This document shows positions 16,479-42,829 of a stretch of 64,000 bases of DNA, one piece after another. Position 1 is the first letter of the stretch, and each line of letters starts with the position of its first letter. Where the stretch lies: the NCBI GenBank assembly GCA_036555035.1, contig DATBMB010000056.1, forward strand, positions 1,267 to 65,266, in the 5' to 3' direction. The notes under the pieces were generated by a model that saw nothing but the letters and a program-made list of their open reading frames with translations, had not been told where the DNA came from and searched no databases. Made by a program: the position numbers and the translations under genes. The stretch is from Burkholderiales bacterium. GTDB taxonomy: Bacteria > Pseudomonadota > Gammaproteobacteria > Burkholderiales > SG8-41.

Positions 16479-16513
16479 GAAGAGCCTATCTCGATCTGCA
16501 TTCTACCCACGCT

Positions 16514-18327: not shown

Positions 18328-19367
18328 GCCGGCGGCGTGGACGGTCCCAGCAACTGGTCGAGCTGCGCCTCGCTCGGCGTCTGGTGGTAGCACCGCGAAT
18401 AGAAGTCGCGCACGATCGGCCGCAGGTCTTCCGGGAAGGCCTCAGGATACAGGATGCGCGCGAGCCAGCGCAGGCCGATCAGGCGGTTCACCGATGGAGG
18501 AAAGTCGATCCAGCCGAACGGCACGTTGGGCGCGAGATGGAAATGCCCCGCCTTGATCGCCGGCAGCTCCCGCCACGAGGGGTGGACGCGCGCGAGCGCG
18601 TAGAAGTTGGGGTCGATGGTGACGACGATGTCGGGGTTCCAGCGCAGCACCTGCTCGATGGAAACCTGCACCAGGCCGCCCTTGCCCGATTCAGCGGCGA
18701 CATTGACGGCTCCCAGCTGCTCGATGAACTCCGCGCTGATCGAGCCCGCAAGACCGGTATTCAGTCCCTGCGGTCCGCGCCCGTAATAGACACGCGGCCT
18801 TCGGCTCGCCGGGACCTTTGCCACCCGCTGCCTGATTTCGGAAACCTTCTGCTTCGCGTAACGCGCCAGCGATTCCGCCCGTTTCTCCTCGTTGGCGATT
18901 CGTCCCACATGCAGAATCGCTTCTCCCATGCGGTCGAAATCGCCGTCCAGCATTACGTAAGGTATTCCCGTCTGCGCCTGCACCCGGTCCGCGAGAGATG
19001 CGAGCGTCGGGCTCACCGTGCCGTAGTCAACGATAAAATCGGGCTTCGCGTGCAGGACGACCTCAACATTCGCCGTGTTGCCGCGCCCCGTCAACCGTCC
19101 CAGCGTCGGCAGATCGGCATAGCGCTGCGCGATGAAGGGCCGCTCGGCGGCGCGCCACGCCGACGTCCACCCGATCAGCTTGTCAGGCGCGATCGCGAAT
19201 ACGAGGATGGAAGCCGGCGGGCCCGCCGCATAGATGCGCTCGACGCGGGCCGGAATCTCCACGCGGCGATCCGCGGCGTCCACGACCACGCGGCTGCCTT
19301 GCGCCCGGGCGGCACGCGGGATGAGCCCCGCAACAGCTGCAGCGGCCAGGAACCTGCGGCGTCTCAC
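18324..19367 (-). CDS. Periplasmic substrate-binding protein of the BtuF/FhuD/MolA class with a twin-arginine signal
   Basis: It has a GTG start. The N-terminus is MRRRRFLAAAAVAGLIPRAARAQ. The Peripla_BP_2-like pattern is ERIYAAGPPASILVFAIAPDKLIGW...KPDFIVDYG. Confidence 0.85.
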   Translation of the reverse strand: MRRRRFLAAAAVAGLIPRAARAQGSRVVVDAADRRVEIPARVERIYAAGPPASILVFAIAPDKLIGWTSAWRAAERPFIAQRYADLPTLGRLTGRGNTANVEVVLHAKPDFIVDYGTVSPTLASLADRVQAQTGIPYVMLDGDFDRMGEAILHVGRIANEEKRAESLARYAKQKVSEIRQRVAKVPASRRPRVYYGRGPQGLNTGLAGSISAEFIEQLGAVNVAAESGKGGLVQVSIEQVLRWNPDIVVTIDPNFYALARVHPSWRELPAIKAGHFHLAPNVPFGWIDFPPSVNRLIGLRWLARILYPEAFPEDLRPIVRDFYSRCYHQTPSEAQLDQLLGPSTPPA

Positions 19368-19391
19368 ATCAAGCGCGGGCGACGAAGTACT

Positions 19392-20579
19392 TCATAGCCG
19401 CAGCCAGCCGCGGCGCACGATCCACAGCACCGCGATGCCGAACACGAAGGCGACACCCACGTTCCAGATCGACAGCGCGGCGGTGCCGAGCGTAACGAAC
19501 CGTTCGCCCTTGTCCTTGGAAAAATCGCAGGATCCAAGCGCGAGCTGCAGCCCGGCAAGGAACAGCATGACGCCCAGCGCCGGCTGCGGGAAAAGCCGCA
19601 GCATGATCGCCACCGATTCGCTGAACGCGAGCGCCAGCACGATCAACAGCGTTCCAAGTATGACGGGCGCGCCGCCGGTTCGGGCGCCGAAGCTCACTTG
19701 CGCCGCCATTCCACCCGCTCCGTGGCACATCGGCACCGCCCCGATCAGGCTGCCCAATGTGTTCATGACGCCCGTCGACACCGCGACCTGGCGCTCGTTC
19801 GTGGGCCGGGCGGGGAACTCGCGGTTATTGAACTCGACTGGGGCAATCACCGCGTTGCCGAGCGTTAGCGGAACTTGTGGCAGAGCCAGCAGCACCACAC
19901 CTACGAACACGGCCTCCCAGCTCAGCGCATGAAACGGCCAGACGGGCGCTTTGAACCCCGGTTCCACCCCGGCCAGGGCGCCTGCCACCGCGGGCTCGGT
20001 CAACACGGCCCACGCCGCACCCGCCGCGAGGATCAGGACCATTGCAAGCAAGGCGCGATTCGCCAGCAGTAGAATCGTGGCGAGCAACAGCGGCGCCGCC
20101 AGCCAGATTCCCGTCGCCATCATGCGCGTGCCGTCCAGCATGAATGCAATGCCTAATCCGAGGACGATGCCGAGGGTGACGGGGCGTCCCACCCACCGCG
20201 CAACCCGTTCGGCAGTCCCGGTCAGGCCCAGGAGCAGCCAGATGACGCCGGTGGCGAGCGCGGCTACCGCTACCGCCTCCGGGGTGACGACCGCGGTCTG
20301 TGCGGCCCCGGTGATGGCGACCGCTCCGATCGCCTTCATCGGCTGCACCGGGAACGGGGTCCGGTAATACGCCCCCGCGGCAACGAAGGCGATTCCGAAC
20401 GCGAGCAGCATGCCGGCCGGCTCTACGCCGACCACGGTGACGTAGGCGAGGAGGAAGGGGACGAGCGTGCCGAGATCACCGAACGCCCCGGCCCATTCAC
20501 GCCGGTCGAAGCGCAGCGCCGTGCTGCCCGACGATGCGGCGGCGGCTTGCGAAGTGCCTGACGGCACAGGCGAATTCAT
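19392..20579 (-). CDS. MOT1-family (MFS_MOT1, SulP-related) putative molybdate/sulfate permease
   Basis: I chose the ATG at 20579 (MNSPVPSG...). GAFGDLGTLVPFLLAY and YRTPFPVQPMKAIGAVAI match the MOT1 hallmarks GDLGT.IP and P.PVQPMK.IAAVA, recalled from plant MOT1. Confidence 0.8.
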   Translation of the reverse strand: MNSPVPSGTSQAAAASSGSTALRFDRREWAGAFGDLGTLVPFLLAYVTVVGVEPAGMLLAFGIAFVAAGAYYRTPFPVQPMKAIGAVAITGAAQTAVVTPEAVAVAALATGVIWLLLGLTGTAERVARWVGRPVTLGIVLGLGIAFMLDGTRMMATGIWLAAPLLLATILLLANRALLAMVLILAAGAAWAVLTEPAVAGALAGVEPGFKAPVWPFHALSWEAVFVGVVLLALPQVPLTLGNAVIAPVEFNNREFPARPTNERQVAVSTGVMNTLGSLIGAVPMCHGAGGMAAQVSFGARTGGAPVILGTLLIVLALAFSESVAIMLRLFPQPALGVMLFLAGLQLALGSCDFSKDKGERFVTLGTAALSIWNVGVAFVFGIAVLWIVRRGWLRL

Positions 20580-20602
20580 GCGCGGGGAGCCTACCCCTCC
20601 CC

Positions 20603-20812
20603 TCAGTCCCGCGCAACCATCACGTCCGATGCCTTGATCACCGCGTAAGCGGCGTCGCCGGCCTTGAGCTTCAGTTCGTCCACGGCTTCGTTCGTGATCG
20701 ATGCCGTGACGATCGCTCCCGCCGCGATCTCGATTTTCACGTGAGCGGTTGTCTGCCCTTTGGTGACCTGGGTCACCTTGCCTTTGAGCACATTGCGAGC
20801 ACTGAGCTTCAT
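20603..20812 (-). CDS. mop: Molbindin (Mop / single TOBE domain molybdate-tungstate binding protein)
   Basis: 69 aa, MKLSARNVLKGKVTQVTKGQTTAHVKIEIAAGAIVTASITNEAVDELKLKAGDAAYAVIKASDVMVA, a canonical Mop sequence. Its ATG overlaps the tupA stop (TAATG). Confidence 0.9.
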   Translation of the reverse strand: MKLSARNVLKGKVTQVTKGQTTAHVKIEIAAGAIVTASITNEAVDELKLKAGDAAYAVIKASDVMVARD

Positions 20813-21648
20813 TACACCCCCTTGGCGTTGGCGTTGGGGAAGAACAGCTGATCACTGCCGATCTTGTAGCCCGCGATGGCCTTCTGGCCTTCGGGCGAAA
20901 CGATCCAATTGATGAAGGCCTGGCCCATGTCCTTCTTCACGTGCTTGTGCTTCGCCGGGTTGACCAGGATCACGCCGTACTGGTTGAACAGGCGCTTGTC
21001 GCCCTCCACCACGATCGTGAGATCGCCGCGATTCTTGAAGGAGATCCAGGTGCCGCGGTCGGTGAGGATGTAGCCGTTCATGGAGGAGGCCGAATTGAGG
21101 GCCGGACCCATACCCTGTCCCGTATCGCGATACCAGGGGCCTTTTTCCTTGGCGATGTCGATGCCTGCCTGCTTCCACAACCTGAGCTCGGCGTTGTGAG
21201 TTCCACTTCTGTCGCCGCGCGAGACGAACGGCGCGCTCGAGGCCTTGATCTTCTTGAGGGCCGCTGTGATGTCCTTGCCCCCGGCTACCTTCGCGGGATC
21301 GGATTTCGGCCCCACCAGCACGAAGTCGTTGTACATAACCGGGAAGCGCTTGACGCCGAAGCCTTCGGCAATGAATTTCTCCTCCAGCGAACGGGCATGC
21401 ACGAAGACGACATCGGCATCGCCGCGCTTGCCCATGTCAAGCGATTGGCCGGTTCCGAGCGCAACCACCCTCACTTCGATTCCCGTTTTCTTCTCGAAGA
21501 TCGGCAGAAGGTGCTTGAACAGGCCCGACTGCTCGGTCGAGGTGGTCGACGCGACGGTGATGAACTTCTGTGCCTGGGCGACCGGCGGCGCAGCAAGCAT
21601 CGATGCCGCAAACGCTATGCCGAGCAATACTCTACGGCTCATTTCCAT
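20812..21648 (-). CDS. tupA: Tungstate ABC transporter substrate-binding protein
   Basis: I chose the ATG at 21648. It gives signal peptide MEMSRRVLLGIAFAASMLAAPPVAQA. TupA-like segments are VASTTSTEQSGL...ALGTGQSL..G..GDADVVFVHA...SRGDRSGTH. The listed 501-aa ORF is an artefactual upstream extension. Confidence 0.9.
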   Translation of the reverse strand: MEMSRRVLLGIAFAASMLAAPPVAQAQKFITVASTTSTEQSGLFKHLLPIFEKKTGIEVRVVALGTGQSLDMGKRGDADVVFVHARSLEEKFIAEGFGVKRFPVMYNDFVLVGPKSDPAKVAGGKDITAALKKIKASSAPFVSRGDRSGTHNAELRLWKQAGIDIAKEKGPWYRDTGQGMGPALNSASSMNGYILTDRGTWISFKNRGDLTIVVEGDKRLFNQYGVILVNPAKHKHVKKDMGQAFINWIVSPEGQKAIAGYKIGSDQLFFPNANAKGV

Positions 21649-22343
21649 GGCAGCTCTCCTCTTATGAACGCTTCGGCTTCCGCCGACGCGGGCTTGGTGA
21701 AAAACCGGTCCACGGGCGCCCGCTCCACCAGGCGCCCTTGGCTCAAGAACAGAATCTCGTCTCCCAGCCGCTTCGCCTGGCCGAGGTTGTGGGTCGTCAT
21801 CACGATCTTGGTGCCGCCCGCCCGGATCTGGCCGATCAGTGACTCGATGTCGCGGGTCGCGCCCGGATCGAGATTGGCGGTGGGCTCGTCGAGGAACAGC
21901 ACCTCGGGGCCAAGCGCCCACGCGCGCGCCAGCGCCACCCGCTGCTGCTCGCCGCCGGACAGTACCCGTGCCGGGCGGTCCGCGATACCGGCGAGGTCCA
22001 CGGCCTCGAGCACATCTCGCGCACGCAGCTCCCGCTCGCGCGCCGATACGCCGGCGAGCTTGAGGCCGTATGCAATGTTGGCGACGGCGGAGCGGCGAAG
22101 CATCACGGGTCTCTGGAACACCATCGCCTGCCGGTTGCGTCCGTTGGCCGCCCCATGCCAGGCGACGCTGCCGTAGGTGGGATTGAGCAGGCCGTGACAT
22201 AGCCGCATCAGCACGCTCTTCCCCGCGCCGTTGGGCCCGAGGATGACCGTGCGCGGGCCCGCGGTGATCTCCATGGAAACCCGGTCGATGATCGTCCGGC
22301 CGTTGACGGCAAAACACACGTTGTTCAGGACGAGTGGCAGCAT
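21639..22343 (-). CDS. tupC: Tungstate ABC transporter ATP-binding protein
   Basis: 234 aa with Walker A GPNGAGKS, the signature LSGGEQQRVALARA and Walker B LFLDEPT. It lies between tupB and tupA. Confidence 0.88.
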   Translation of the reverse strand: MLPLVLNNVCFAVNGRTIIDRVSMEITAGPRTVILGPNGAGKSVLMRLCHGLLNPTYGSVAWHGAANGRNRQAMVFQRPVMLRRSAVANIAYGLKLAGVSARERELRARDVLEAVDLAGIADRPARVLSGGEQQRVALARAWALGPEVLFLDEPTANLDPGATRDIESLIGQIRAGGTKIVMTTHNLGQAKRLGDEILFLSQGRLVERAPVDRFFTKPASAEAEAFIRGELPWK

Positions 22344-22350
22344 CGTGCGC

Positions 22351-23055
22351 TCAGCCGTAGCGCCGCTGGGCGGCTTCCTTGACCCAGTACGCGGCCGCGT
22401 TCAGGGAGAGGACGAGCGTGATGAGGATGATCCCGAGGCCCAGCGCGAGCGGGAGATCGCCCTTGCTGGTTTCGAGCGCGATCGCGGTTGTCATGACGCG
22501 CGTGACGCCGTCGATATTGCCGCCCACGATGATCACGGCGCCGACCTCCGCAGCGGCGCGGCCGAATCCCGCCAGCACGATCGTCACCAGCGAGAATCGC
22601 GTGTCCCACAGCAGGGTGAGCGCGGATGCCGCCGGACCGGCTCCGAGAGAGCGCAGCTGCTCGCGGTATTCCTGCCACGTGTCCTCGATCACCTGGCGCG
22701 ACAGCGCCGCCACGATGGGCGCGATCAGGATCGTCTGCGCGATGATCATCGCGCCGGGCGTGAATAGGATGCCGAACTCGCCGAGCGGACCGGCCCGGGA
22801 CAACATCAGGTACACGATAAGACCGACCACCACCGGGGGCAGGCCCATGAGCGCGTTCAACAGCACTATCAGCGCGCGGCGGCCAGGAAAGCGCCCGACT
22901 GCAATTGCCGCACCGAGCGGCAAGCCGATCAGGCTCGCGAGAAGCACCGCCGTGAGGCTCACACGCAGCGACAGCAGCACGATGTCGACGACCGCGGCGT
23001 CAAACCGCGCGATCATTCGGCCGGCTTCACCGACCGCCGCGAAGATTTCATTCAT
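22351..23055 (-). CDS. tupB: Tungstate ABC transporter permease
   Basis: 234 aa polytopic protein with the EAA-type loop GFGRAAAEVGAVIIVGGNIDGVTRVMTTAI, typical of TupB. Confidence 0.88.
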   Translation of the reverse strand: MNEIFAAVGEAGRMIARFDAAVVDIVLLSLRVSLTAVLLASLIGLPLGAAIAVGRFPGRRALIVLLNALMGLPPVVVGLIVYLMLSRAGPLGEFGILFTPGAMIIAQTILIAPIVAALSRQVIEDTWQEYREQLRSLGAGPAASALTLLWDTRFSLVTIVLAGFGRAAAEVGAVIIVGGNIDGVTRVMTTAIALETSKGDLPLALGLGIILITLVLSLNAAAYWVKEAAQRRYG

Positions 23056-23056
23056 G

Positions 23057-23102
23057 GAGCGTGTTATGCTTTATGAGACATAACTAATCGTTTAACACGC
23101 TC
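23057..23102. promoter_or_regulatory. Nested inverted repeats in the divergent tupB / regulator promoter region (candidate operator)
   Basis: The outer perfect 10-bp inverted repeat is GAGCGTGTTA (23057-23066) with TAACACGCTC (23093-23102). The inner perfect 6-bp repeat is GTTATG-N10-CATAAC. The region is locally AT-rich. Confidence 0.4.
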
Positions 23103-23136
23103 AAGCTTAGCCAATCGCAATAGCGTCCATCTACTT

Positions 23137-24219
23137 ATGCCTAATGATGCATATGCAGCGATCGGCCCCGCTGTTCGTTGGCTGGCCGAAGGCCGATCCA
23201 TCGATTCGCGCCTGCTCCCGCTGCTGCGCGCCGTAGCCAAAACCGGCTCGCTCAACAGGGCGGTGGCGTCGCAGGGACTTTCCTATCGCCACGCGTGGGG
23301 TCTGATCGGGAAGATGGAGCGCACGCTGGGCCGGTCGCTGGTCGTGATGCAGCGTGGCCGCGGCGCAAAGCTGAGTCCGTTTTCACTCAAGCTCCTGGAA
23401 GCCGACGACACCGCCACCCGGGTCATCGAGCGGGAACTGGCCGCCACCGTGCGTGCGCTCGGGCGCGCGACGCCGCTCACGCTCGACGCACCGCGCGGAA
23501 TGCCGCTGCTGATCCACGCAAGCCACGACTTCGCGCTCGCCGCGTTACGGGACCTGGTAGCGGAATCAGGCGCTGCCGAAGTGGAGCTGCACTTTCGCGG
23601 CAGTCTGGAGTGCCTCGCGAGCCTCGCGCGAGGAGAATGCGACGTCGCCGGCTTCCACGTGCCGGATGCGTCCACCGGCCGCTCGGCGTTCGAGCCCTAC
23701 CGCCCGCTCCTGCGCTCGCGAGGGCTGCGTCTCGTGCGCTTTGTCGACCGCCGCCAGGGGCTGATCGTTTCCCGGGGCAATCCGAAGCGGTTGCTGTCGC
23801 TTGCCGATCTCGCTGCGAAAGGCGCCCGCTTCATCAACCGTCAGTCCGAATCCGGCACGCGCCTGGCCCTCGACCGCCTGCTGGGCGCGGCCGGCCTCAG
23901 GCCGTCGGAAATCAAGGGTTATCAGAGCGAGGAGTTCACTCACGCCGCCGTCGCGGCGACCGTGGCGAGCGGCATGGCGGACGCGGGGTTCGGCATCGAA
24001 GCCGCTGCGCGGCAACATCACCTCGATTTCGTCCCGCTCGCGAACGAGCGCTATTTTCTGGCCGCGCGGCAGGCAACGCTCGCCCGGCCCGCCGCTCGCG
24101 CCCTGCTCACCGCCATCAAGAGCCCGGCATTCGAGAAGCGAATTCAGGCTCTTCCGGGCTACGCGGCGCCCGGTATCGGCGAGGTCATCCGGGTACGCGA
24201 GGCCATCCCGTCGGCGTAG
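23137..24219 (+). CDS. Transcriptional regulator: ModE-type HTH fused to a periplasmic-binding-protein-like (oxyanion-binding type) sensor domain
   Basis: The N-terminus GSLNRAVASQGLSYRHAWGLIGKMERTLGRSLVVMQRGRGAKLSPF is ModE-like. The C-terminal ~230 aa are PBP-like (LRFVDRRQGLIVSRGNP...INRQSESGTR...ADAGFGIEAAA). Confidence 0.8.
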   Translation: MPNDAYAAIGPAVRWLAEGRSIDSRLLPLLRAVAKTGSLNRAVASQGLSYRHAWGLIGKMERTLGRSLVVMQRGRGAKLSPFSLKLLEADDTATRVIERELAATVRALGRATPLTLDAPRGMPLLIHASHDFALAALRDLVAESGAAEVELHFRGSLECLASLARGECDVAGFHVPDASTGRSAFEPYRPLLRSRGLRLVRFVDRRQGLIVSRGNPKRLLSLADLAAKGARFINRQSESGTRLALDRLLGAAGLRPSEIKGYQSEEFTHAAVAATVASGMADAGFGIEAAARQHHLDFVPLANERYFLAARQATLARPAARALLTAIKSPAFEKRIQALPGYAAPGIGEVIRVREAIPSA

Positions 24220-24282
24220 GCCCCGGTCCGGGAAATGGGCGTAGAATTTCCTGACACTTCGTTGCCGGCTCCGCCCTGCCCC

Positions 24283-25557
24283 ATGAATGATCCCGTCCAA
24301 AACCTGCACGCCCTGAGCTGCGCCGACGACTACGATCCCAATTCGATGCCGGTCGCTAAAGCGCGCGAGGTCATCGCGCGCTTCCTTTCCCCCGTGAACG
24401 CCATCGAGCGCGTCAACCTGCGTGCCGCCCTCGGGCGCGTCCTTGCCGAGGATGTGGTTTCGCCCTTGAACGTGCCCGCCCACGACAACTCCGCGATGGA
24501 CGGTTACGCCGTGCGCTTCGCGGATCTGAAAGCCGACGGCGAGGTTTCCCTCAAGAACGTCGGAAGCTCCTTTGCCGGCGCGCCATTCAAGGGGACCGTG
24601 GCGGCCGGGCAATGCGTGCGCATCATGACGGGCGGTGTCGTGCCGCCGGGCACCGACACCATCGTGATGCAGGAGCACGTCAAGGCCGGGAAGGACGGCG
24701 TCGCCGTCGGCCCCGGCCACAAGAAGGGACAGAATCTGCGCCGCGCAGGCGAGGACCTCAAGGTCGGCCAAGTCGCATTGAAGCGCGGCCTGGCGCTCCG
24801 TCCCGCCGAGATCGGGCTCATCTCATCGCTCGGGATCGGCGAGGTCGGCGTCTACCGCCGGCTGCGCGCCGCGTTCTTCTCCACCGGCGACGAGCTGGTT
24901 TCGATCGGCACGCAGCCCGGGGAAGGCCAGATCTTCGACAGCAACCGCTACACGATTCACGGCATGCTGACCCGCCTCGGCTGCGAGGTGATCGACATGG
25001 GCGTTGTGCGCGACGACCCGAAGCTGCTGGAGAAGGCGTTTCACGATGCCGCCGCGGCCGCGGACGTGGTGATCACGAGCGGCGGCGTGTCGGTCGGCGA
25101 GGCGGACTTCGTAAAGGAGCTGCTGAACAAGCTGGGCGAGGTGGTGTTCTGGAAGATCGCGATGAAGCCGGGGCGTCCCCTCGCCTACGGCAAGATCGGC
25201 GCGGCGCACTTCTTCGGCCTGCCGGGCAACCCGGTGTCGGTGATGGTGACCTTCTACCAGTTCGTGCGCGATGCGCTGCTCGTTCTCTCCGGCCGCGATC
25301 CCGTGCCGCCGCTGCCGACGTTCAAGGTTTCATGCACCTCCAGCCTCAAGAAGGCGCCCGGCCGCACCGAGTTCCAGCGCGGCATTCTCACGCAGGACTC
25401 CGCCGGCGCCTGGAGCGTGCGCGTCACCGGCGAGCAGGGGTCGGGGATACTCCGCTCGATGTCGGAGGCGAACTGCTTCATCATCCTGGCGACCGAACAG
25501 GGGAACGTGACGCCGGGGACGATGGTCGACGTGCAGGTGTTGGAAGGCCTGGTCTGA
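24283..25557 (+). CDS. moeA: Molybdopterin molybdotransferase
   Basis: MoeA pattern ...[11 protein letters not shown]...[18 protein letters not shown]...[14 protein letters not shown]...GLPGNPVS. I chose the ATG at 24283. Confidence 0.92.
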
Positions 25558-27574: not shown

Positions 27575-27627
27575 GGAAAAGGTGTCAGGAACCTTTTCGC
27601 CGCGAAAAGGTTCCTGACACCTTTTCC
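27575..27627. repeat. 53-nt near-perfect palindrome (26-nt arms, 1-nt centre) between convergent nrfA and the first radical SAM gene; likely a bidirectional terminator or REP-like element
   Basis: GGAAAAGGTGTCAGGAACCTTTTCGC, then c, then GCGAAAAGGTTCCTGACACCTTTTCC. It starts 13 nt after the nrfA stop and contains the last 14 sense codons plus the stop codon of the radical SAM gene. Confidence 0.6.
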
Positions 27628-28571
27628 AAGGACCAGGTCTCGTTGGCGTGCCGAAGGAGGCCCGGGTCCGAGCGGCACGCCTCGATGAACTCGCGCACTT
27701 CGCGCGAGCGCCAGGCCTCACGGTAGGCGTTCCAGGCCTCCTCCAGAGAGTCGCTACGCAGGTCGGCGGACGCGAACGGCAGCGCGTTCAGGAGCTTCAC
27801 CTTTCCGTTTGGGACCACCAGCAGCATCGCCTGCGGGCTCGCGAGCCGCTCCTCCAGTTCGGTGAGGATGTCCCACGGGTAGATTGAGAGCCCGGTCGCC
27901 GCTGCGCGGGATTTCGCGTGATCGCGTAGCGCCTCAACCGCCCCCTGCCAGTCGCGTTCCGAGCAGGCCAGCTTGTCCCAGGTAGCCGCCGCGCGCCCGA
28001 GGCGCATCAGCGGCCCGGTGACAAAGGTGCTGCAGCCCAGCTCGACCGCCAGGTCGTAGGTGCCGACCGCATCGCGGATATTCCACCGCGTGGGAACGAA
28101 CACGAGCTGGGGCGCGAGGCCGCGGACTGCCAGCCGTCGGATGGCTCCAATAGCCGCATCGAAGCTCGATCCCGGGCGCACGCGCTCGTGCATCTCGGCC
28201 GTTGCGCCGTCCACCGACACCTGCACGCATTGGACCTTCAGCCGCGCCAGGCGCGCGGCTGCGGCGTCATCGATATGAGACCCGTCAGTCTCGATTTTCA
28301 GGGCGACGCCACTCGCCGCGAGTAGCTCGGCAAGCTCCCAGAAATGGGAGACCCCAAGCGGCTCGCCCCCGCCGAAAGCGACATACGGGATGCCGGAGGC
28401 GACGATGTGGCGACCGAGCGCCAGCGCCTCGGCGCGCGTCAGCTCATCCGGCCAGGCCTTGTCGGGGCCGGATTCCTCGCAGCAGGTGACGCAGCGGGCC
28501 CCGCAGCGGTTGGTCAGCTGCCAGGCAAGAAAAAGGGGCGCGCGGTATTCGGTTACCGCGCGCCCCGGCAT
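27585..28571 (-). CDS. Radical SAM enzyme, PqqE/MftC-like, cysteine-poor C-terminal domain (paralog 1)
   Basis: APLFLAWQLTNRCGARCVTCCEESGPDK contains the CX3CX2C motif. Other matches are AFGGGEPL, LKIETDG, VQVSVDG and the C-terminal LLVVPNGKVKLLNALPFASADLRSDSLEEAWNAYREAW. I chose the ATG at 28571, preceded by GAGGTGG. Confidence 0.85.
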   Translation of the reverse strand: MPGRAVTEYRAPLFLAWQLTNRCGARCVTCCEESGPDKAWPDELTRAEALALGRHIVASGIPYVAFGGGEPLGVSHFWELAELLAASGVALKIETDGSHIDDAAAARLARLKVQCVQVSVDGATAEMHERVRPGSSFDAAIGAIRRLAVRGLAPQLVFVPTRWNIRDAVGTYDLAVELGCSTFVTGPLMRLGRAAATWDKLACSERDWQGAVEALRDHAKSRAAATGLSIYPWDILTELEERLASPQAMLLVVPNGKVKLLNALPFASADLRSDSLEEAWNAYREAWRSREVREFIEACRSDPGLLRHANETWSLEKVSGTFSRRKGS

Positions 28572-28607
28572 TGCGGTCCCCACCTCTATCTCTGAAGCAG
28601 GGGGGTG

Positions 28608-28626
28608 CGAGGGGAGTATCCCCTCG
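28608..28626 (-). promoter_or_regulatory. Stem-loop immediately downstream of the precursor-peptide ORF (possible attenuator or mRNA stabiliser)
   Basis: CGAGGGG-AGTAT-CCCCTCG forms a 7-bp GC-rich stem. On the mRNA it begins 12 nt after the peptide stop. No U-tract follows. Confidence 0.35.
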
Positions 28627-28638
28627 TTCCTATCTCTC

Positions 28639-28797
28639 TCAGGTGAAGCGGATGTACGGCTGGGCCATGACCTGCTCGGAAACGTCCTCCATCTTCGGCG
28701 TTTCCCAGTTCAGGCGCTCGGCCGGCTTGATCTTCTGGGCCTTCTCTTCCTGTTCCGTCTTTTCGCCCTGCTGCAGGTTCACTTTCATGTCGCCCAT
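28639..28797 (-). CDS. 52-aa candidate precursor peptide (PqqA-like C-terminal core)
   Basis: The ATG at 28797 is preceded by a strong AGGAGG 5 nt upstream. The peptide is MGDMKVNLQQGEKTEQEEKAQKIKPAERLNWETPKMEDVSEQVMAQPYIRFT. It is wedged between two radical SAM genes, and a PqqD-like gene lies in the same operon. Confidence 0.65.
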   Translation of the reverse strand: MGDMKVNLQQGEKTEQEEKAQKIKPAERLNWETPKMEDVSEQVMAQPYIRFT

Positions 28798-28811
28798 AGT
28801 GCCTCCTGTAT

Positions 28812-29771
28812 TCAAATTTGCGAAATCGCCAACCGGCGCCAACCATTGGCATCGGCATGCTGCAATTCATCCCCGCTCGCGCGGCGGACCGCACCTCGCA
28901 TCGCCTCGTCCCGCCAGGCGCCGCGGTATGCCGCCCACGCCTGCGCCAGGCTGTCGCGCCGCAGGTCGGCGCATATCTGCGGGAGCGCCGCCGCGACCTT
29001 CACCCACCCGTTGGGAAGCACCAGCAACGTCGCCGGAGCCTCGTCCAGGCTTGCACTCAGCGCCTCGCCCAACGTGAAGGGAGAATAGCAGAATTCCATC
29101 CGCCCTCCAAGATTGCGGGCCTCCCGTTCGAGCAGATCCCGGAAATCTCGATACTGTCCGGCAGCCGGTTCGAGCCGGTCCCACAGGCGCGCCGCGGTCC
29201 CGACCCTCATCAGCTTGCCGGTATTGAACCGGAACGCGCCCAGCCCCGCCGCGCGCTGGATCACCGCCCCGGCTTCGTGAATATTAAGGCGCGTCGGTGC
29301 AAATGTGATCTCCAGGGGCAAGCCCGCCGCCCGCACCGCCCGGCACGCCGCATGCGCCTTCTCGAGCGAGCCGCCCGGGCGCTGGCGCCCATAGACCTCC
29401 TGGCTGTCGCCATCGAGGCTCACCTGGATTGAGCGGACCGGCAGCCGGGCGAGTCTCTCTGCGATGGCGGTATCGAGCCGCTGGCCATTGGTTTCGATCT
29501 TGAGCTGCACGCCACCCGCCCCGAGGGCTTCCGCGAGCCGGAAGAAGTGCGGCACCACCAGCGGCTCTCCGCCGCACAGCATGACGTACGGCACCTCGTT
29601 GCGGATGATCTCGACCACGACCCCCATAGCCTCCTCTGCATCCAGCTCGTCCGGGAGGCGCTTGCCGGGCGCCGAATCGGTGCAGCAGTGCAGGCACGCG
29701 AGATCGCAGTCGCGCGTGATCTGCCACGAGACGAAGAGGGGTGCTCGCAGGCTGTCGATCCGGTTTTCCAT
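28812..29771 (-). CDS. Radical SAM enzyme, PqqE/MftC-like, cysteine-poor C-terminal domain (paralog 2)
   Basis: The ATG at 29771 gives MENRIDSLRAPLFVSWQITRDCDLACLHCCTDSAPGK. Other matches are LCGGEPL, LKIETNG, IQVSLDG and LLVLPNGWVKVAAALPQICADLRRDSLAQAWAAYRGAW. The listed 668-aa ORF is an upstream extension that overlaps the prenyltransferase gene in another frame. Confidence 0.85.
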   Translation of the reverse strand: MENRIDSLRAPLFVSWQITRDCDLACLHCCTDSAPGKRLPDELDAEEAMGVVVEIIRNEVPYVMLCGGEPLVVPHFFRLAEALGAGGVQLKIETNGQRLDTAIAERLARLPVRSIQVSLDGDSQEVYGRQRPGGSLEKAHAACRAVRAAGLPLEITFAPTRLNIHEAGAVIQRAAGLGAFRFNTGKLMRVGTAARLWDRLEPAAGQYRDFRDLLEREARNLGGRMEFCYSPFTLGEALSASLDEAPATLLVLPNGWVKVAAALPQICADLRRDSLAQAWAAYRGAWRDEAMRGAVRRASGDELQHADANGWRRLAISQI

Positions 29772-29782
29772 GAGAGACGGGG

Positions 29783-30712
29783 TCAGCCCAGCAGGAGGCC
29801 CACGCCAAACAGCGTGACGGCGACCGCATAGCAGCCGATGATGGCGCGGATGGCAGGCACGAACTGGCGCGGGGCTTCGTAGGTGTGCAGGGCGATTCGC
29901 GCGCTTGTCAGGAGCAAAGGCAACGCCAGCAGCGCAGACAGGCACGCTACGGGAAAGACGCCGGTGGCGACACCGGCCGCGGCAGTGCAAAGCCCCGCCG
30001 CAGCAAGCGCGAGGTAGAGCCACACTCCGCGCCGCCGCCCCAGCCGCACGACGAGATTGCGTTTTCCCACGAGCCGGTCCTGGTGATAGTCGGGGATGGC
30101 GTTTACCACGGCGAGCGACATGATCAGGAATCCCGGCACCAGCGATGCCCAGAACGCACCCCACGAAAGCGCCCGGGTGTGGAGATAAAGGCTCCCCAGC
30201 ACCATCCACGGGCCATAGGACAACGCGATCACGGTTTCGCCGAGGCCGCGATAGGCCCAGCGAATGGGCGGCGCCACGTAAAAAATGGCAGCGAGTCCTC
30301 CGAGCACCGCGAACGCCAGGATCGGCCAGCCGCCCCGGTAGGTGAGATAAACGCCCACGCCCAGAGCGCCGGCAAACGCTGCCACGCCCAGCCACAGCAC
30401 CCACCCGGACATGGGCGCCTCCTCGTCCGGATTGAACACGCGATCGGTGCCCATCTGCGAATCGAAATACTCGTTGAACGCTTCGACCCCGATGACTGCA
30501 AGCACCACGCCGCCGAGTCCGCTCCAGAAGACACTTGCATTGAACGCGCCTTCCATCGCATGCGCCCAGGCAGCGCCCAGGAGGTAGGGCAGCAGCCCCG
30601 CATACAGAAAGAAACGGTAACGAACGAGGCTCGCAACCCGCAGCAGCACGCGCAACGGCGAGCGCTCCGCCCCGAGGCGCTGATGCGGCGGGGTCGTCAG
30701 AGATAGACCCAT
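29783..30712 (-). CDS. UbiA-superfamily aromatic prenyltransferase, MenA-like
   Basis: About 309 aa and polytopic. The first Asp-rich motif is FNEYFDSQMGTD. The second is PDYHQDRLVGKRNLVVRLG. Recalled MenA equivalents are NDYGDAVKGSD and D...D...GK.TL.VRLG. The ATG at 30712 overlaps the upstream radical SAM gene by 16 nt. Confidence 0.85.
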   Translation of the reverse strand: MGLSLTTPPHQRLGAERSPLRVLLRVASLVRYRFFLYAGLLPYLLGAAWAHAMEGAFNASVFWSGLGGVVLAVIGVEAFNEYFDSQMGTDRVFNPDEEAPMSGWVLWLGVAAFAGALGVGVYLTYRGGWPILAFAVLGGLAAIFYVAPPIRWAYRGLGETVIALSYGPWMVLGSLYLHTRALSWGAFWASLVPGFLIMSLAVVNAIPDYHQDRLVGKRNLVVRLGRRRGVWLYLALAAAGLCTAAAGVATGVFPVACLSALLALPLLLTSARIALHTYEAPRQFVPAIRAIIGCYAVAVTLFGVGLLLG

Positions 30713-31698
30713 TGGTGCAGCGTTGCAGTCTTGCGCGGATCCTGCGCCAGGTCCTCGACAAACTTCGCGACGCGCGGATCCTGCCACGCGCGCTGGAATC
30801 GCGCCCAGATCTCGCCAAGCGTCTGCCGCCGCAGGTCGCCGCACACGAACGGCAACGCGTTGATGAGCTTGACCAGGCCGTTGGGCAGCACGATCAGGAG
30901 CGCTGCCGGGTGATGCAGGCGATAGCGCAGTTCCTCGAGCAGCCCCATCTCGTGGAAATAGACCCGCATTCGGCCGCGGTATTCCTCGGTCTTGCCGTGA
31001 AGCACGGCGAAAAATTCATCGTACTGTGCATCGGAAGGCGCCATCCGGTGCCAGGTCTTGACGGCGTTGCCGGTATACATCGTGCGCCCGGTATAGAAGC
31101 TGTAGGCGCCGAGCTCGGCGGCGAGGTCCACTGCAGTGCCGATCTCGTGGGTGTTGAAGCACGTGGGTGAGTAGTTGATCTCGATCGGCACTCCCGCGGC
31201 GCCCAGATTGCGGATCCCTTGGACTGTCAGGTCGAAATCGCCCCGCACCCGCATGCGGTTGAAGGTCTCGCGCGAGGCGCCGTCCAGGCTCACCTGCACG
31301 GCTTTCACGCCCAGGCGCTTCAGGCGCTCGCAGTTCTCCGCAGAGAGATAGGCGCCGTTGGTCTCGATCTTGAGCTGACCGTTGCGCTTGCAGACATACT
31401 CCACCATATCGAAGAAGCGCGGATGCACCATCGGTTCCCCGCCCGAGAACGACAGATAGGGCACCTCGAGGTCGATTGCCTGCTCGAGAACGCTGAATAC
31501 CTGCTCGTCGCTCAGCTCGTCGTGGAACGCCTTGCCGGGGCCGCTTTCCTCGATGCAATGGAGGCAGGCGAGATTGCATTCGTTGGTCACCTGCCATGCG
31601 ATATAGAGCGGCGCGCCGAGATCTCCCGAGCCGGTCTCGGCTGGAGTGGATTCCGGCACCGGGGAGCGCACCCCAGCACCACTCACCTGCGTGGCCAC
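30697..31698 (-). CDS. Radical SAM enzyme, PqqE/MftC-like, cysteine-poor C-terminal domain (paralog 3)
   Basis: GAPLYIAWQVTNECNLACLHCIEESGPGK, FSGGEPM, LKIETNG, VQVSLDG and LLIVLPNGLVKLINALPFVCGDLRRQTLGEIWARFQRAW. I chose the GTG at 31698, with GAGGA 8 nt upstream and 4 nt after the PqqD-like stop. The listed TTG at 31740 is the alternative. Confidence 0.85.
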   Translation of the reverse strand: MATQVSGAGVRSPVPESTPAETGSGDLGAPLYIAWQVTNECNLACLHCIEESGPGKAFHDELSDEQVFSVLEQAIDLEVPYLSFSGGEPMVHPRFFDMVEYVCKRNGQLKIETNGAYLSAENCERLKRLGVKAVQVSLDGASRETFNRMRVRGDFDLTVQGIRNLGAAGVPIEINYSPTCFNTHEIGTAVDLAAELGAYSFYTGRTMYTGNAVKTWHRMAPSDAQYDEFFAVLHGKTEEYRGRMRVYFHEMGLLEELRYRLHHPAALLIVLPNGLVKLINALPFVCGDLRRQTLGEIWARFQRAWQDPRVAKFVEDLAQDPRKTATLHQWVYL

Positions 31699-31702
31699 CG
31701 CG

Positions 31703-31954
31703 TCAATCCTCGACCAGTCCCTTTTGCCGCAGCTCGGCAATGAACGCGACAGCCTCGCGCTCGATCGCCCCGCCTTCGTCGCGGAAGCGCGCCTTCAGTA
31801 GTCCCGGGATGTCACGCTCCGCGCGCCCCGCCTGGATCTCGCGCACCACCGCGGTCGCGGTGGGATTGAGGGTGTAGACCTTCTCGGAGCGCGTCTCGAA
31901 CAACACGCCGCCGAACTTCTCCTCGCGGAATTTGACGTACTGGGTGAGTTTCAT
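31703..31954 (-). CDS. PqqD/MftB-family peptide chaperone (RiPP recognition element)
   Basis: 83 aa, MKLTQYVKFREEKFGGVLFETRSEKVYTLNPTATAVVREIQAGR...AVAFIAELRQKGLVE, a typical PqqD-family pattern. The radical SAM gene follows immediately. Confidence 0.8.
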   Translation of the reverse strand: MKLTQYVKFREEKFGGVLFETRSEKVYTLNPTATAVVREIQAGRAERDIPGLLKARFRDEGGAIEREAVAFIAELRQKGLVED

Positions 31955-32011
31955 GAAGCGCCTCGCGGACCGCCATTATAACGGCCGGGCCCGGCGCCAC
32001 CACGACCGCAA

Positions 32012-32530
32012 TCAGTACTTGCCGTGCACCTTGTAGATATAGTTCGTGAGCTCGCTGGTCTGCATCGCCATGCGGTTCACGATGAGGTGCACGACGCGGA
32101 AGATCGCGCGCATGACGCGGTAGACGATGACCGGCTCGCGCTCGAGCAGCGATTCCAGCTTCTCGCGCTCCAGGCACAGGACCTGAGTTGGCCCGGTCGC
32201 GCGCAACGCCGCGTAGTGCGGCCGGCCGTCCATGAAGCCGAGTTCCCCGGCGAGGTCGCCCTTGGTGAGGAGGTGCAGGTTGATCCACTGCCCGTCCGCC
32301 TCGACCTGCCGGGCCACCGCCAGCGCCCCGCCCACGATCACGTAGAGGTGATTGTCGCTGGCGCCCTGTCGGACGAGGACCTCCCCGTCCGCCAGGTTGC
32401 GCACAGACACCAGGTCGGCGAGAACGCTGCACTGGTCCCCGGTCAGCTCCACCGCCAGCGCCGCGTTGCGCAGCAGCTCCAGCTTTTGCTTGGTTTCCTG
32501 GCTCTTTCCCCGGGCAGCCGCGTCAGGCAC
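32012..32530 (-). CDS. Stand-alone cyclic-nucleotide-binding domain protein (no DNA-binding domain)
   Basis: 172 aa with the cNMP-binding beta-roll pattern GEVLVRQGASDNHLYVIVGGALAV...GDLAGELGFMDGRPHYAALRA. The GTG start is preceded by AAGGAG. Confidence 0.8.
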   Translation of the reverse strand: MPDAAARGKSQETKQKLELLRNAALAVELTGDQCSVLADLVSVRNLADGEVLVRQGASDNHLYVIVGGALAVARQVEADGQWINLHLLTKGDLAGELGFMDGRPHYAALRATGPTQVLCLEREKLESLLEREPVIVYRVMRAIFRVVHLIVNRMAMQTSELTNYIYKVHGKY

Positions 32531-32595
32531 GGATTCGCTCCTTTGCGCGAAAGGACACTATGTTGCGGATTATTATGCTATTGGGAAATGTTAGC

Positions 32596-32609
32596 TTGAT
32601 CTAGATCAA
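32596..32609. promoter_or_regulatory. Perfect FNR/Anr-type box TTGAT-N4-ATCAA in the divergent promoter region
   Basis: TTGATCTAGATCAA matches the consensus exactly. Its centre is about 72 nt from the cNMP-binding gene start and about 117 nt from the fumA ATG. On the minus strand a TAATAA/CATAAT hexamer lies 18-20 nt beyond the box, which fits class II geometry. Confidence 0.7.
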
Positions 32610-32719
32610 CCGCTGTCGTGAGTCTTTGGCAAGTATTGCATTGTGTACGCGGCGCCATTTGAGAAAACCAGCATCCGTGTTACATCATCGGTTAATATCC
32701 CTGCCTGCCGGAGCGAAAC

Positions 32720-40612: not shown

Positions 40613-40855
40613 CTATTTCTTCATGGCCGCCGCGGTACCGCTGCCCTTGTTCCGCTTGTAATTCTGCACCGCGCGATCCTGCGCCTTCTCCAGGGCCACC
40701 GCCGCCTTCTTGGCGGCCTCGCCCTTCTTGGCCTTCGCTTCTGCCGCCTTGGCTTTCTCCGCGTCGCTCAAGGGCGGCAGCTTGGCGGAGGCGACGCCGA
40801 CCGCCAACCCGACCAGCAGCGCCGGGATCACGATCCAGAATCTCGTTGCTTTCAT
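40613..40855 (-). CDS. Small secreted Ala/Lys-rich protein of unknown function, translationally coupled to the fdh gamma subunit
   Basis: The ATG at 40855 overlaps the gamma-subunit stop (ATGA). Signal peptide MKATRFWIVIPALLVGLAVGVASA is followed by a low-complexity AEKAKAAEAKAKKGEAAKK region. Confidence 0.5.
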   Translation of the reverse strand: MKATRFWIVIPALLVGLAVGVASAKLPPLSDAEKAKAAEAKAKKGEAAKKAAVALEKAQDRAVQNYKRNKGSGTAAAMKK

Positions 40856-41928
40856 AGCTTCCATCCCTCCTTCATCGAGTTCGCGCGCGCGGCCGCCGTG
40901 CTGCCCGCGGCGCCCGGCCGGCCTTTGACGACGTCGTTATACCAGTGCTCGTGGTGCTCCTTGGCCCACTGCTCGTCGACCTTCCCGTCGGTGCGCATGC
41001 ACTCGTAGGCCCCTTCCACGCCGACGGACCCGAGGTAGATGTGCCCGAGCATCATGGCGACATAGAGCACGCCGGTCACCGCGTGGATGATGTTCGAGTA
41101 CTGCATGACCAGCCGGCCCTGCTCGAAGTTCGGGAACAGCATGATGATGCCGGATGCGCCGACGATGATCGTGAACAGGAACAGCCCGACCCAGAACACG
41201 ATCTTCTCGCCCGCGTTGAAGAATCCCGACGGGACGTGCTCGCCCGTCAGCATGCCGCCGCCCTTGAGCAGCCACCCGAAATCGTATCCGCGCGGGATGT
41301 TGCGCGAGAGATAGGTGAAGAACATCAGCGCCGCGGCGATCAGGAAGACCGGCCCGATGAAGTTGTGCAGGTTCTTCGACAGGATCGCGAGCCAGGAGAA
41401 CACTGTATAGCCGAACATCGGCAGCACGACATACTTGCCGAAGAGCAGCAGAACCCCGGAGATCGCGAGAATCACCCAGCTGATCGCGACCGTCCAGTGC
41501 ATGGTGCGATCCCAGCTCGACAGGCGCTGGATCTTCCTTCCGGTCAGCCGGCCGTGGACCTTGAGCGGGCCCCGCCACAGGTAGAAGCCGAGTATCAGCA
41601 GCGGAACGATGATGAGCAGCCAGCCGCCGTAGACCGTGATCGGGCCATTGCGGATCTGGCGCCAGATCTCGCCCTCGGACTGGATGAGGACGTTGGTCTC
41701 GATGCCGCGCACCTGGGTGGTCTGCGCGGGGGAGGTCGTGGTGCTGCGCACGTCGCGCCAGACCGGCGCGTTGTTGAGCGGCTGGTCCTGCTGGCGCTGC
41801 ACCTGCTCCTTGGCGTGCTCCTGTGCGACGCCCTGAGCGGCCAGCGGCAGCGGCGTGAGGAGCATCACGCCCGCCAGGGCCATGAGACGAACCATTGCTC
41901 GCATGTCGCCGATGCGGACCATGCGCAT
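40852..41928 (-). CDS. fdhC: Formate dehydrogenase gamma subunit (cytochrome b) with an extended N-terminal region
   Basis: SSWDRTMHWTVAISWVILAISG...NLHNFIGPVF...IIHAVTGVLYVAMMLGHIYLG matches FdnI/FdoI-type cytochrome b histidine-containing helices. The exact start is uncertain. Confidence 0.88.
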   Translation of the reverse strand: MRMVRIGDMRAMVRLMALAGVMLLTPLPLAAQGVAQEHAKEQVQRQQDQPLNNAPVWRDVRSTTTSPAQTTQVRGIETNVLIQSEGEIWRQIRNGPITVYGGWLLIIVPLLILGFYLWRGPLKVHGRLTGRKIQRLSSWDRTMHWTVAISWVILAISGVLLLFGKYVVLPMFGYTVFSWLAILSKNLHNFIGPVFLIAAALMFFTYLSRNIPRGYDFGWLLKGGGMLTGEHVPSGFFNAGEKIVFWVGLFLFTIIVGASGIIMLFPNFEQGRLVMQYSNIIHAVTGVLYVAMMLGHIYLGSVGVEGAYECMRTDGKVDEQWAKEHHEHWYNDVVKGRPGAAGSTAAARANSMKEGWKL

Positions 41929-41943
41929 CCCTCCTATCGCGTT

Positions 41944-42180
41944 CTAGTTCCTGGCGCTGGGCGTGCCGCGGGAATACTCGTTCTGCCCTTCGATGCGCTT
42001 CTTGATGGCGGTTTCCCAGGCCAGCTTGTCGCCCTTGAATTGATCGTTGTCCCAGGGCTGCTTGTCCGGCTTCCCTTGGTACTGGCCCTGCTTGTACACG
42101 GTGACCTGCGTACTTTCGCCGCAGCCTGCCGCTGCCGCCGCCAGGGCCATGGCGGCGGCTATCAACAGCGCTTTTCTCAT
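41944..42180 (-). CDS. 78-aa predicted lipoprotein inserted between the fdh beta and gamma genes
   Basis: The ATG at 42180 overlaps the fdhB stop (ATGA). MRKALLIAAAMALAAAAAGC carries a lipobox (AAGC). Confidence 0.6.
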   Translation of the reverse strand: MRKALLIAAAMALAAAAAGCGESTQVTVYKQGQYQGKPDKQPWDNDQFKGDKLAWETAIKKRIEGQNEYSRGTPSARN

Positions 42181-42800: not shown

Positions 42801-42829
42801 GGTTCAGCTCCTCTGTGTCCCGTTCTCGA

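Follow-up and report, generated by a model that had tools for sequence, protein, structure and literature searches.

We analysed a 64,000-nt stretch of contig DATBMB010000056.1 (GCA_036555035.1) from a Burkholderiales bacterium; "the window" denotes this whole stretch, and coordinates without a locus label are positions within it. The window contains an operon of seven tightly packed genes, all read in the same direction from the minus strand (27585-32530), in which a short precursor peptide is encoded together with a PqqD-like protein, three radical S-adenosylmethionine (SAM) enzymes termed rSAM1, rSAM2 and rSAM3, a membrane prenyltransferase and a cyclic nucleotide monophosphate (cNMP)-binding protein. 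The genes were read straight off the minus strand and from a listing of open reading frames (ORFs), with domains assigned by Pfam and equivalogs by NCBIfam release 20. The other loci compared here carry labels consisting of L and a number.

The first gene of the operon encodes the 172-aa cNMP-binding protein (32012-32530, minus strand; PF00027, E = 6e-18), a stand-alone domain without a helix-turn-helix. It is followed by the gene for the 83-aa PqqD-like protein (31703-31954, minus strand; PF05402, E = 1.5e-10), a putative peptide chaperone of the kind that serves as a recognition element (RRE) for peptides that are synthesized on the ribosome and modified after translation (RiPPs), and, after a 4-nt gap, by the GTG-initiated rSAM3 gene (30697-31698, minus strand; 333 aa). 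The prenyltransferase gene (29783-30712, minus strand; 309 aa, PF01040), encoding a MenA/UBIAD1-like membrane protein of the UbiA superfamily, overlaps rSAM3 by 16 nt and is separated by 11 nt from rSAM2 (28812-29771, minus strand; 319 aa). The precursor peptide gene (28639-28797, minus strand; 52 aa), with AGGAGG 6 nt upstream, lies 14 nt beyond rSAM2, and a 67-nt spacer leads to rSAM1 (27585-28571, minus strand; 328 aa). An original prediction for this DNA had described seven co-directional minus-strand genes with these junctions; each gap and overlap was confirmed on the reading strand, and Pfam bore out its domain calls (cNMP-binding, PqqD, three radical SAM proteins lacking SPASM, and a UbiA/MenA-like prenyltransferase).

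A strongly conserved precursor peptide

The window peptide (MGDMKVNLQQGEKTEQEEKAQKIKPAERLNWETPKMEDVSEQVMAQPYIRFT) has homologs in 1108 clusters, every one unnamed. It occurs in 129 genomes, according to a scan of one genome per GTDB species, and on at least 600 metagenome contigs. The host genomes are mostly uncultured Burkholderiales, Casimicrobiaceae, Usitatibacter and Steroidobacteraceae, and three cultured hosts are purple non-sulfur Alphaproteobacteria (Rhodothalassium salexigens DSM 2132, Rhodopila globiformis DSM 161 and Rhodovibrio sodomensis DSM 9895). The module is also carried by the contigs CAVUKE010000003.1 (4.28 Mb) and CAWDIV010000015.1 (1.18 Mb) and by the Omnitrophota genome GCA_030697605.1. 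Core motifs served as the search patterns in both collection scans, so that invariance in these sets is partly built in; true variability was judged by an index-free profile hidden Markov model (HMM) search of 1.84 billion representatives (50% identity). In the HMM search, MAQPYIRFT formed the C-terminal end of 81 of the 94 representatives, and AQP[YF]IRF[TS] was matched by 87. The leader, comprising the first ~30 residues, is freely variable and the C-terminus near-invariant over 9 to 15 residues, with the family consensus W-x2-P-x-[LMI]-x-[DE]-V-S-x-x-[VI]-M-A-Q-P-Y-I-R-F-T. Positions 41 and 42, Glu and Gln in the window peptide, vary within the family, and Met44 is occasionally Thr or Ile. 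No NCBIfam model matched the peptide at all, those for PqqA and MftA included. The peptide is a real, strongly conserved precursor.

The product had been envisaged as based on Tyr48 and Trp31. The former residue stands in the near-invariant core, where Phe or Cys rarely takes its place, but Trp31 sits in the recognition/leader stretch (W-x2-P-x-[LMI]-x-[DE]-V-S), outside the core. Two longer homologs, P0269 (140 aa) and P0331 (119 aa), show the peptide fused to the rSAM2 C-terminus or stop-codon read-through, and are probably frameshifts or mis-called genes in metagenome assemblies.

The PqqD-like protein, radical SAM enzymes and prenyltransferase

The PqqD-like protein scored 41.6 against PF05402 (cutoff 23.4), and stayed below the cutoffs of the TIGR03859 equivalog (26.9 vs 46) and MftB (19.1 vs 33) as well as the lasso cutoff. 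Its gene is present in all complete loci of both architectures described below.

All three radical SAM proteins matched the Pfam Radical_SAM domain, and none of them had a PF13186 (SPASM) match or a CX2CX5CX3C motif. The rSAM3 protein, to which rSAM2 and rSAM1 are 42% and 36% identical, has CX3CX2C at C41/C45/C48, GGEP and extra conserved cysteines at 103, 123 and 286. Both of the other proteins have CX3CX2CC and GGEP, with conserved cysteines at 66, 143, 228 and 267 in rSAM2 and at 115, 180, 203 and 299 in rSAM1. Since CX3CX2C and GGEP are kept across orthologs, with more than 100 invariant positions in each protein, all three paralogs look active.

The best NCBIfam match of the rSAMs was MftC (E ~1e-36), at 119.5-127 bits against a cutoff of 265 and aligned only over model positions 7-236 of 339, the N-terminal two-thirds; AhbD, NirJ, PqqE and SkfB came next. 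The PqqE (TIGR02109) scores were 81, 59 and 46.5 against a cutoff of 381. Among PDB sequences, rSAM3 matched SkfB (7e-21) and PqqE (4e-13), and its AlphaFold (AF2) model, with a predicted local distance difference test (pLDDT) score of 83, had SkfB, PqqE, BlsE, SuiB and MoaA as best fold matches (Foldseek, 1.2e-15 for SkfB and 2e-13 for PqqE). The C-terminal beta-hairpin region of the rSAMs is similar to the start of a SPASM domain. The three to four dispersed conserved cysteines and the SkfB/PqqE/MoaA-like fold make one auxiliary cluster possible.

The prenyltransferase scored 82.1 against PF01040 (cutoff 34.2, E = 5e-23), and 63 orthologs keep both of its Asp-rich motifs, N80-E-x2-D84-x5-D90 and N204-x3-D208-x3-D212, unchanged. 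Its best NCBIfam matches were the 1,4-dihydroxy-2-naphthoate (DHNA) polyprenyltransferases (MenA), every one below cutoff (NF004751, 98.8 vs 264; TIGR00751, 70.5 vs 102.15). MenA was matched at E = 4e-28 and chlorophyll synthase at 2e-9, and the haem O synthase model was absent among the 14 families listed at E <= 0.01. The only PDB sequence match was UBIAD1 (E = 0.003).

Gene order, neighbours and regulation in Proteobacteria

The window proteins were compared by tblastn with 80 loci, 65 of which were informative, being long enough for gene order. The order PqqD-rSAM3-prenyltransferase-rSAM2-peptide-rSAM1 was kept in 61 of the 65, across Alpha-, Beta- and Gammaproteobacteria, and amino acid identity within the conserved unit was 55-90% across the three classes. 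With 1108 clusters of peptide homologs, this shared order places the operon arrangement far beyond chance. Conservation of the peptide ORF and of gene order in relatives had been set beforehand as a test of the prediction, which thereby withstood it. The four exceptions (L014, L016, L028 and L033) are partial second copies.

These partial copies occur in metagenome-assembled genomes (MAGs) that also hold a fuller copy (L016/L020, L028/L036, L033/L019), and consist of the peptide gene with rSAM1 or of other gene fragments, sometimes straight after frdCAB. In one MAG, most of rSAM1 is missing from L019, and L033 comprises the peptide gene and an intact rSAM1. One Burkholderiales sub-lineage (L010, L012, L022) has an insertion of ~650 nt between rSAM2 and the peptide gene.

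The cNMP-binding gene was present only in five close relatives among the 80 loci (L004, L005, L013, L020, L022) and was rejected as a module member on account of this restriction, so that six genes of the seven-gene set originally proposed stand as conserved. Seven other loci encode a second type of stand-alone cNMP-binding protein close to the module. The unit that is conserved comprises six genes in Proteobacteria and four or five in other groups; specific to particular lineages are the cNMP gene, the FNR box described below and the triplication of the rSAM gene.

By raw count, a quinone-coupled respiratory gene lies within 10 kb of the module in 38 of the 56 long proteobacterial loci. The commonest neighbour is frdCAB of the Wolinella type, whose one cytochrome b subunit has 270 aa; it is found directly upstream on the same strand in about ten proteobacterial loci. 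Next come NapC/NirT tetrahaem proteins, MtrA-like multihaem cytochromes, 2-oxoacid:ferredoxin oxidoreductases, Crp/Fnr regulators, malic enzyme and NiFe hydrogenase, and NrfH is also found nearby.

The FNR/CRP-type box of the window, TTGATCTAGATCAA (32596-32609, not assigned to a strand), is perfect, as predicted, and stands ~66 nt upstream of the start codon of the cNMP-binding gene, within the 189 bp (32531-32719) that separate this gene from the divergent fumA-frdABCD. It is the sole perfect TTGAT-N4-ATCAA in the 64 kb, where 0.48 sites with at most one mismatch would be expected by chance. Among the compared loci, a box with at most one mismatch lay within 400 nt of pqqD in 6 of 64, against ~1.5 expected, and some related loci have similar boxes ahead of frdC, pqqD or the cNMP gene, in neighbourhoods rich in such boxes. 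The box, originally counted as part of the system, is therefore present here but was rejected as a family-defining part; anaerobic (FNR) control appears plausible for the window operon and is not a family trait.

Across more than 150 loci of both forms, no exporter, immunity gene, dedicated peptidase or leader protease, or hydroxylase was among the recurrent neighbours. Likewise, pqqB, pqqC and pqqF were absent from the recurrent neighbours within 10 kb of 80 + 90 loci, a survey covering the loci and not whole genomes, and mftD, mftE and mftF were absent from all loci examined.

A minimal form of the module outside Proteobacteria

The contexts of divergent peptides and 80 metagenome loci, analysed with a tblastn panel, revealed a second architecture, peptide-PqqD-one rSAM-prenyltransferase, in DNA of 28-66% GC, including a Candidatus Omnitrophota genome. 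A prenyltransferase, likewise scoring below the MenA equivalog cutoffs, is encoded in 27 of the 30 minimal loci with enough downstream DNA. The single rSAM of this form (L086-L090) is 44-47% identical to rSAM3 and 37-42% to rSAM2/rSAM1. Because it is closest to rSAM3, it is the rSAM3 ortholog, and rSAM2 and rSAM1 are proteobacterial duplicates. The set of three rSAM paralogs put forward originally is thus kept in Proteobacteria, but one suffices in the minimal form, which is probably ancestral.

A polyprenyl-diphosphate synthase gene lies next to the minimal module in 8 of 25 loci (including L086, L089, L090, L120, L126, L160 and L170), and none is adjacent to the operon in the window. The best matches of this synthase are heptaprenyl (HepT), solanesyl and octaprenyl synthases, enzymes that make quinone side chains.

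In 17 of the 47 minimal loci, a six-gene RnfC/NqrB-F-like cluster ends at most 600 nt upstream of the module on the same strand; the first gene of the cluster scores above the rnfC cutoff and the last above that of the nqrF equivalog. The cluster is interrupted in L101, L121 and L123, where the block peptide-PqqD-rSAM-prenyltransferase separates the nqrE-like gene from the nqrF-like one. Also found near the minimal module are Hdr/Flx-like genes, a PsrABC-like molybdoenzyme with an NrfD subunit, MoeA, MobB-like, IspH and two-component regulators.

The hybrid cluster (L088, 3064-8818; L089, 2930-8406; L131, L147, L170, L099, L129, L156) has rnfC first and nqrF last, with NqrB/RnfD-, NqrC/RnfG-, NqrD/RnfE- and NqrE/RnfA-like genes between them and without RnfB, and looks like an RNF-to-NQR intermediate. 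Genes for moeA or a MobB-like protein adjoin the module in both architectures (L086, 10775-11983; L090, L121, L114, L164; MobB-like in L160/L170); such molybdenum-cofactor (Moco) genes may merely reflect the neighbouring molybdoenzyme respiration genes. A class I SAM methyltransferase gene, encoding a candidate ring or peptide methyltransferase, starts 12 nt past the prenyltransferase gene at a single locus (L151, 12268-13065).

The Y48F variants of the peptide come from L082 and L083. At L083 (1143-4200) and L084 (66-3956), a peptide-PqqD-rSAM set stands beside FecCD/Peripla_BP_2/ABC importer genes. No prenyltransferase was found within 3.3 kb at L083, where a 241-aa multi-pass membrane protein without a family match is encoded upstream.

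Comparison with known systems

None of the seven proteins reaches a curated cutoff in NCBIfam release 20, and a description of the module was not found in full-text literature, including by its core sequence QPYIRFT, with subscription-only papers outside the search. The module is a widespread combination that is undescribed in the sources searched, in agreement with the earlier statement that it is not any named system. As far as the sequences allow, it may be assigned to the PQQ (pyrroloquinoline quinone)/mycofactocin-like, peptide-derived-cofactor type, as a member of neither system. That the peptide lacks a terminal GVY and an E-x3-Y, and that pqqB/C/F and mftD/E/F are missing at the locus, had been noted before and was upheld by the models and the neighbour survey.

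As in the mycofactocin system, the small peptide varies at its N-terminus and is invariant at its C-terminus, the PqqD-family chaperone stands alone, and there is a final decoration step but no exporter; the rSAM has MftC as its best curated match, and the expected product is a redox cofactor kept in the cell. The module differs in that its peptide ends in MAQPYIRFT, whereas MftA ends in GVY, and in that its rSAMs score below the MftC cutoff and have no SPASM domain; MftD, MftE and MftF are absent. For decoration it has a UbiA-family prenyltransferase of the membrane in place of a glycosyltransferase, and its partners are membrane respiratory complexes instead of nicotinoprotein dehydrogenases.

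The likeness to PQQ biosynthesis lies in the PqqD domain and the PqqE-like rSAM fold (Foldseek E = 2e-13), and we take the peptide to be in the register of PqqA, with W-x2-P, an acidic residue at +7 and Tyr at +17. However, it has no E-x3-Y, with Met44 (varying to T/I) at the Glu position; the rSAMs lie far below the PqqE cutoff and lack the SPASM motif; and no pqqB/pqqC/pqqF genes occur at the loci. PQQ is, moreover, soluble, periplasmic and not prenylated.

The SPASM/twitch RiPP maturases (SkfB, SuiB, PqqE, sactisynthases and three-residue cyclophane enzymes) resemble the module enzymes in that SkfB and SuiB are the best sequence/fold matches, in RRE dependence and in the beta-hairpin resembling the start of SPASM. 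In the module, by contrast, the RRE is a separate protein, CX2CX5CX3C is absent with only 3-4 dispersed conserved Cys, and the enzymes are coupled to a membrane prenyltransferase. In more general terms, a gene-encoded precursor, an RRE and a modifying enzyme share one operon, as in a generic RiPP system; a leader peptidase or exporter was not found at the loci, with FecCD-type importer genes only at L083 and L084.

As regards menaquinone tail attachment, the module prenyltransferase is closest to MenA/UBIAD1 with the Asp-rich motifs kept, a HepT/IspB-type synthase follows the minimal module, and quinone-coupled enzymes are neighbours. The pairing of an aromatic prenyltransferase with a long-chain polyprenyl-diphosphate synthase is, in minimal form, that of a quinone cluster. 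On the other hand, the prenyltransferase reaches none of the MenA equivalog cutoffs, MenB-F and Mqn genes are missing from the neighbourhood, and the presumed acceptor would come from a ribosomal peptide, that of menaquinone from chorismate.

A putative polyprenylated product for anaerobic electron transport

On balance, the gene content makes it somewhat more probable than not that the module matures a ribosomal peptide into a polyprenylated, membrane-bound molecule for anaerobic electron transport. In such a pathway, the PqqD-type RRE would bind the W-x2-P...[DE]-V-S stretch and present the core to the rSAM(s), which would form radical C-C or C-X bonds, or perform an oxidative decarboxylation, within MAQPYIRFT. 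The prenyltransferase would attach a polyprenyl tail to an aromatic acceptor, most simply the Tyr48 phenol or a ring derived from Tyr48, a para-substituted phenol similar to 4-hydroxybenzoate. Tyr48 as the prenyl acceptor would fit the Y48F locus L083, a single case, because it has no prenyltransferase. Housekeeping proteases may trim the peptide, and the product would remain membrane-bound, either as a low-potential, quinone-like carrier or as a cofactor with a lipid anchor. In the window it would serve fumarate reductase and NrfH/CymA-type enzymes, under FNR control, and in other phyla NQR/RNF-like complexes. A cofactor retained in the cell fits the finding that no exporter, immunity gene or dedicated protease recurs.

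A more specific proposal, which we hold tentatively and place somewhat below an even chance, is that the polyprenylated product of MAQPYIRFT, made by one rSAM and the MenA-like enzyme, is a low-potential membrane carrier or an obligatory lipid cofactor, its partners being NQR/RNF-like complexes in the Omnitrophota and further uncultured anaerobes. In ubiquinone-based Proteobacteria, it would work with fumarate reductase and NrfH/CymA-type enzymes. Fumarate reductase, NrfH and CymA use low-potential quinols. The original prediction, an unnamed peptide-maturation system with a probably prenylated product and a role in low-potential anaerobic respiration, gains support from the quinone-coupled neighbours that recur across phyla. 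Pseudomonadota are ancestrally ubiquinone organisms in which low-potential quinones were acquired secondarily, and fumarate reductase works with low-potential quinones (PMC11707229). Further quinones are probably still to be discovered (PMC13386864).

Several points weigh against a respiratory lipid made from the peptide. Its chemistry and redox role are inferred from genes, and no hydroxylase, methyltransferase (except in L151) or peptidase is conserved with the module; with no oxygenating or ring-excising enzymes conserved, it is not apparent how a true quinone would be reached. Two of the HMM representatives have Phe and one has Cys in place of Tyr48, and no UbiA-family enzyme is known to act on peptides. 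As to the neighbourhoods, the three cultured alphaproteobacterial loci have no respiratory neighbours, NQR-like genes occur at only about a third of the minimal loci, and the neighbour counts come with no background rate for enrichment. The recurrent MoeA/MobB, CobA/HemD and FecCD-type transporter genes hint at other cofactor links.

All known respiratory quinones obtain their head group from chorismate-derived or related small-molecule pathways, and PQQ and mycofactocin, both soluble, are the only known redox cofactors derived from a peptide by means of a PqqD chaperone and an rSAM. If the more specific proposal is true, the product would be the first ribosomally templated isoprenoid electron carrier. 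A polyprenylated membrane molecule derived from a peptide would add a new class to the bioenergetic lipids and another to the RiPPs, and the prenyltransferase would be the first UbiA-family enzyme in peptide maturation; were the respiratory role confirmed, the product class would be categorically new. Such a molecule could explain the menaquinol-type fumarate reductases, NrfH and CymA in ubiquinone-type Beta- and Gammaproteobacteria, and the means by which NQR-like complexes are fed in lineages that have no recognisable quinone pathway. Metagenomes from soil, sediment and groundwater contain the module in abundance; it is old enough to span phyla and wired into core bioenergetic operons, and its presence in three culturable phototrophs makes the question directly testable.

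Alternative explanations

The mature product might instead stay a peptide, serving as a cross-linked, prenyl-anchored accessory subunit or an assembly/stability factor of respiratory complexes, which we consider unlikely. The 9-15 near-invariant C-terminal residues with no conserved protease, and the three loci in which the module is embedded between nqrE-like and nqrF-like genes, point in this direction, and [YF]-I-R presumably fits the aromatic-x-x pattern of rSAM-made three-residue cyclophanes, a likeness that we take as a lead only. However, the same core stands beside unrelated complexes (Frd, Nrf, NQR-like and Psr-like) and also alone, which a diffusible or common cofactor would explain better than a subunit of a single complex. 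In addition, it is quinone-type lipids that typically have a long-chain polyprenyl synthase dedicated to them.

Such a synthase is also consistent with a third, peptide-templated and O2-independent route to a known low-potential quinone (menaquinone, demethylmenaquinone or the head group), in which the rSAMs would form the ring out of Tyr48 and a neighbouring side chain, the tail being attached by the MenA-like enzyme. We regard this as quite improbable. Besides a polyprenyl synthase closest to quinone side-chain synthases, the prenyltransferase closest to MenA/UBIAD1 and the neighbouring Wolinella-type frdCAB, NrfH/CymA-type enzymes and NQR-like complexes speak in its favour; Wolinella-type frdCAB and NrfH/CymA are classically menaquinol-dependent, and the NQR of model organisms reduces ubiquinone. 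Menaquinones (MK) have also been reported for Rhodothalassium and Rhodopila, which carry the module as does Rhodovibrio. For Rhodovibrio, MK-10 is documented (PMC7179689). These hosts may, however, simply have men or mqn genes. The enzymes for a second ring oxygen or for ring excision are not conserved with the module, nine invariant core residues exceed the need of a two-residue ring donor, and Y48F variants exist.

An exported lipopeptide natural product, acting as a signal, antimicrobial or metallophore, is very unlikely. The RiPP-like architecture of the module would suit such a product, FecCD/Peripla_BP_2 ABC transporter genes stand beside the peptide in L083 and L084, and prenylated peptide pheromones such as ComX exist. 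But the FecCD proteins are importers confined to these two atypical loci, one of which has no prenyltransferase and is Y48F, and the survey of more than 150 loci yielded no exporter, immunity gene or leader protease. A core that stays invariant from phylum to phylum is the reverse of the usual pattern among antimicrobial or signalling RiPPs.

Least probable of all, the enzymes would act on a tetrapyrrole or Moco intermediate, with AhbD/NirJ/MoaA-like rSAMs, a haem O/chlorophyll synthase-like prenyltransferase and the peptide as a scaffold or chaperone: the rSAMs do match the AhbD and NirJ models about as well as MftC, and MoeA, MobB-like and CobA/HemD genes recur nearby with the window itself being a Moco island, but PqqD/RRE domains are known only as peptide binders, MenA is matched far better than chlorophyll synthase with no haem O synthase among the families listed, and Moco genes are expected beside molybdoenzyme respiration genes anyway.

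Surroundings and minor features of the operon

The operon is flanked by nrfH/nrfA, a class I fumarase gene, frdABCD, two DASS dicarboxylate carriers and a formate dehydrogenase with cytochrome b, as the predicted NrfH, FrdABCD and cytochrome b Fdh flanks required. The wider window is a molybdenum-cofactor and anaerobic-respiration island (12198-25557, 40852-52000 and 61783-63947) with moaE, a modABC-like transporter, a ModE-like regulator, moeA, formate dehydrogenase (alpha, beta and cytochrome b), a 700-aa polyferredoxin with a DUF3305 protein, moaA, fdhD, selD and a rhodanese (SelU-like). The moeA gene (24235-25557) is three genes away from the operon. No men, mqn, ubi or rquA genes were found within the 64-kb window.

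The 67-nt spacer between the peptide gene and rSAM1 (28572-28638, minus strand) can form two stem-loops (dG -29.4 kcal/mol, z = -2.98) and may have a role in transcript processing or attenuation. A conserved attenuator was rejected, the spacer being ~20-25 nt in most loci and the hairpin form lineage-specific.

Between the convergent nrfA and rSAM1 lies a perfect inverted repeat (27576-27626, not assigned to a strand) with 23-bp arms and a 5-nt loop, which looks like a bidirectional terminator. Two arms were found, with 0 expected by chance, and a REP-like repeated element at the 3' end was rejected, as the hits are merely both arms of one palindrome. The repeat encodes the last ~14 codons of the rSAM1 ORF (tail ...EKVSGTFSRRKGS), and since it supplies them, this C-terminal tail is probably not functional protein sequence. 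Elsewhere in the window, two GGDEF-EAL proteins are encoded at 8266-10101 and 53598-55997, one of them with PAS domains.

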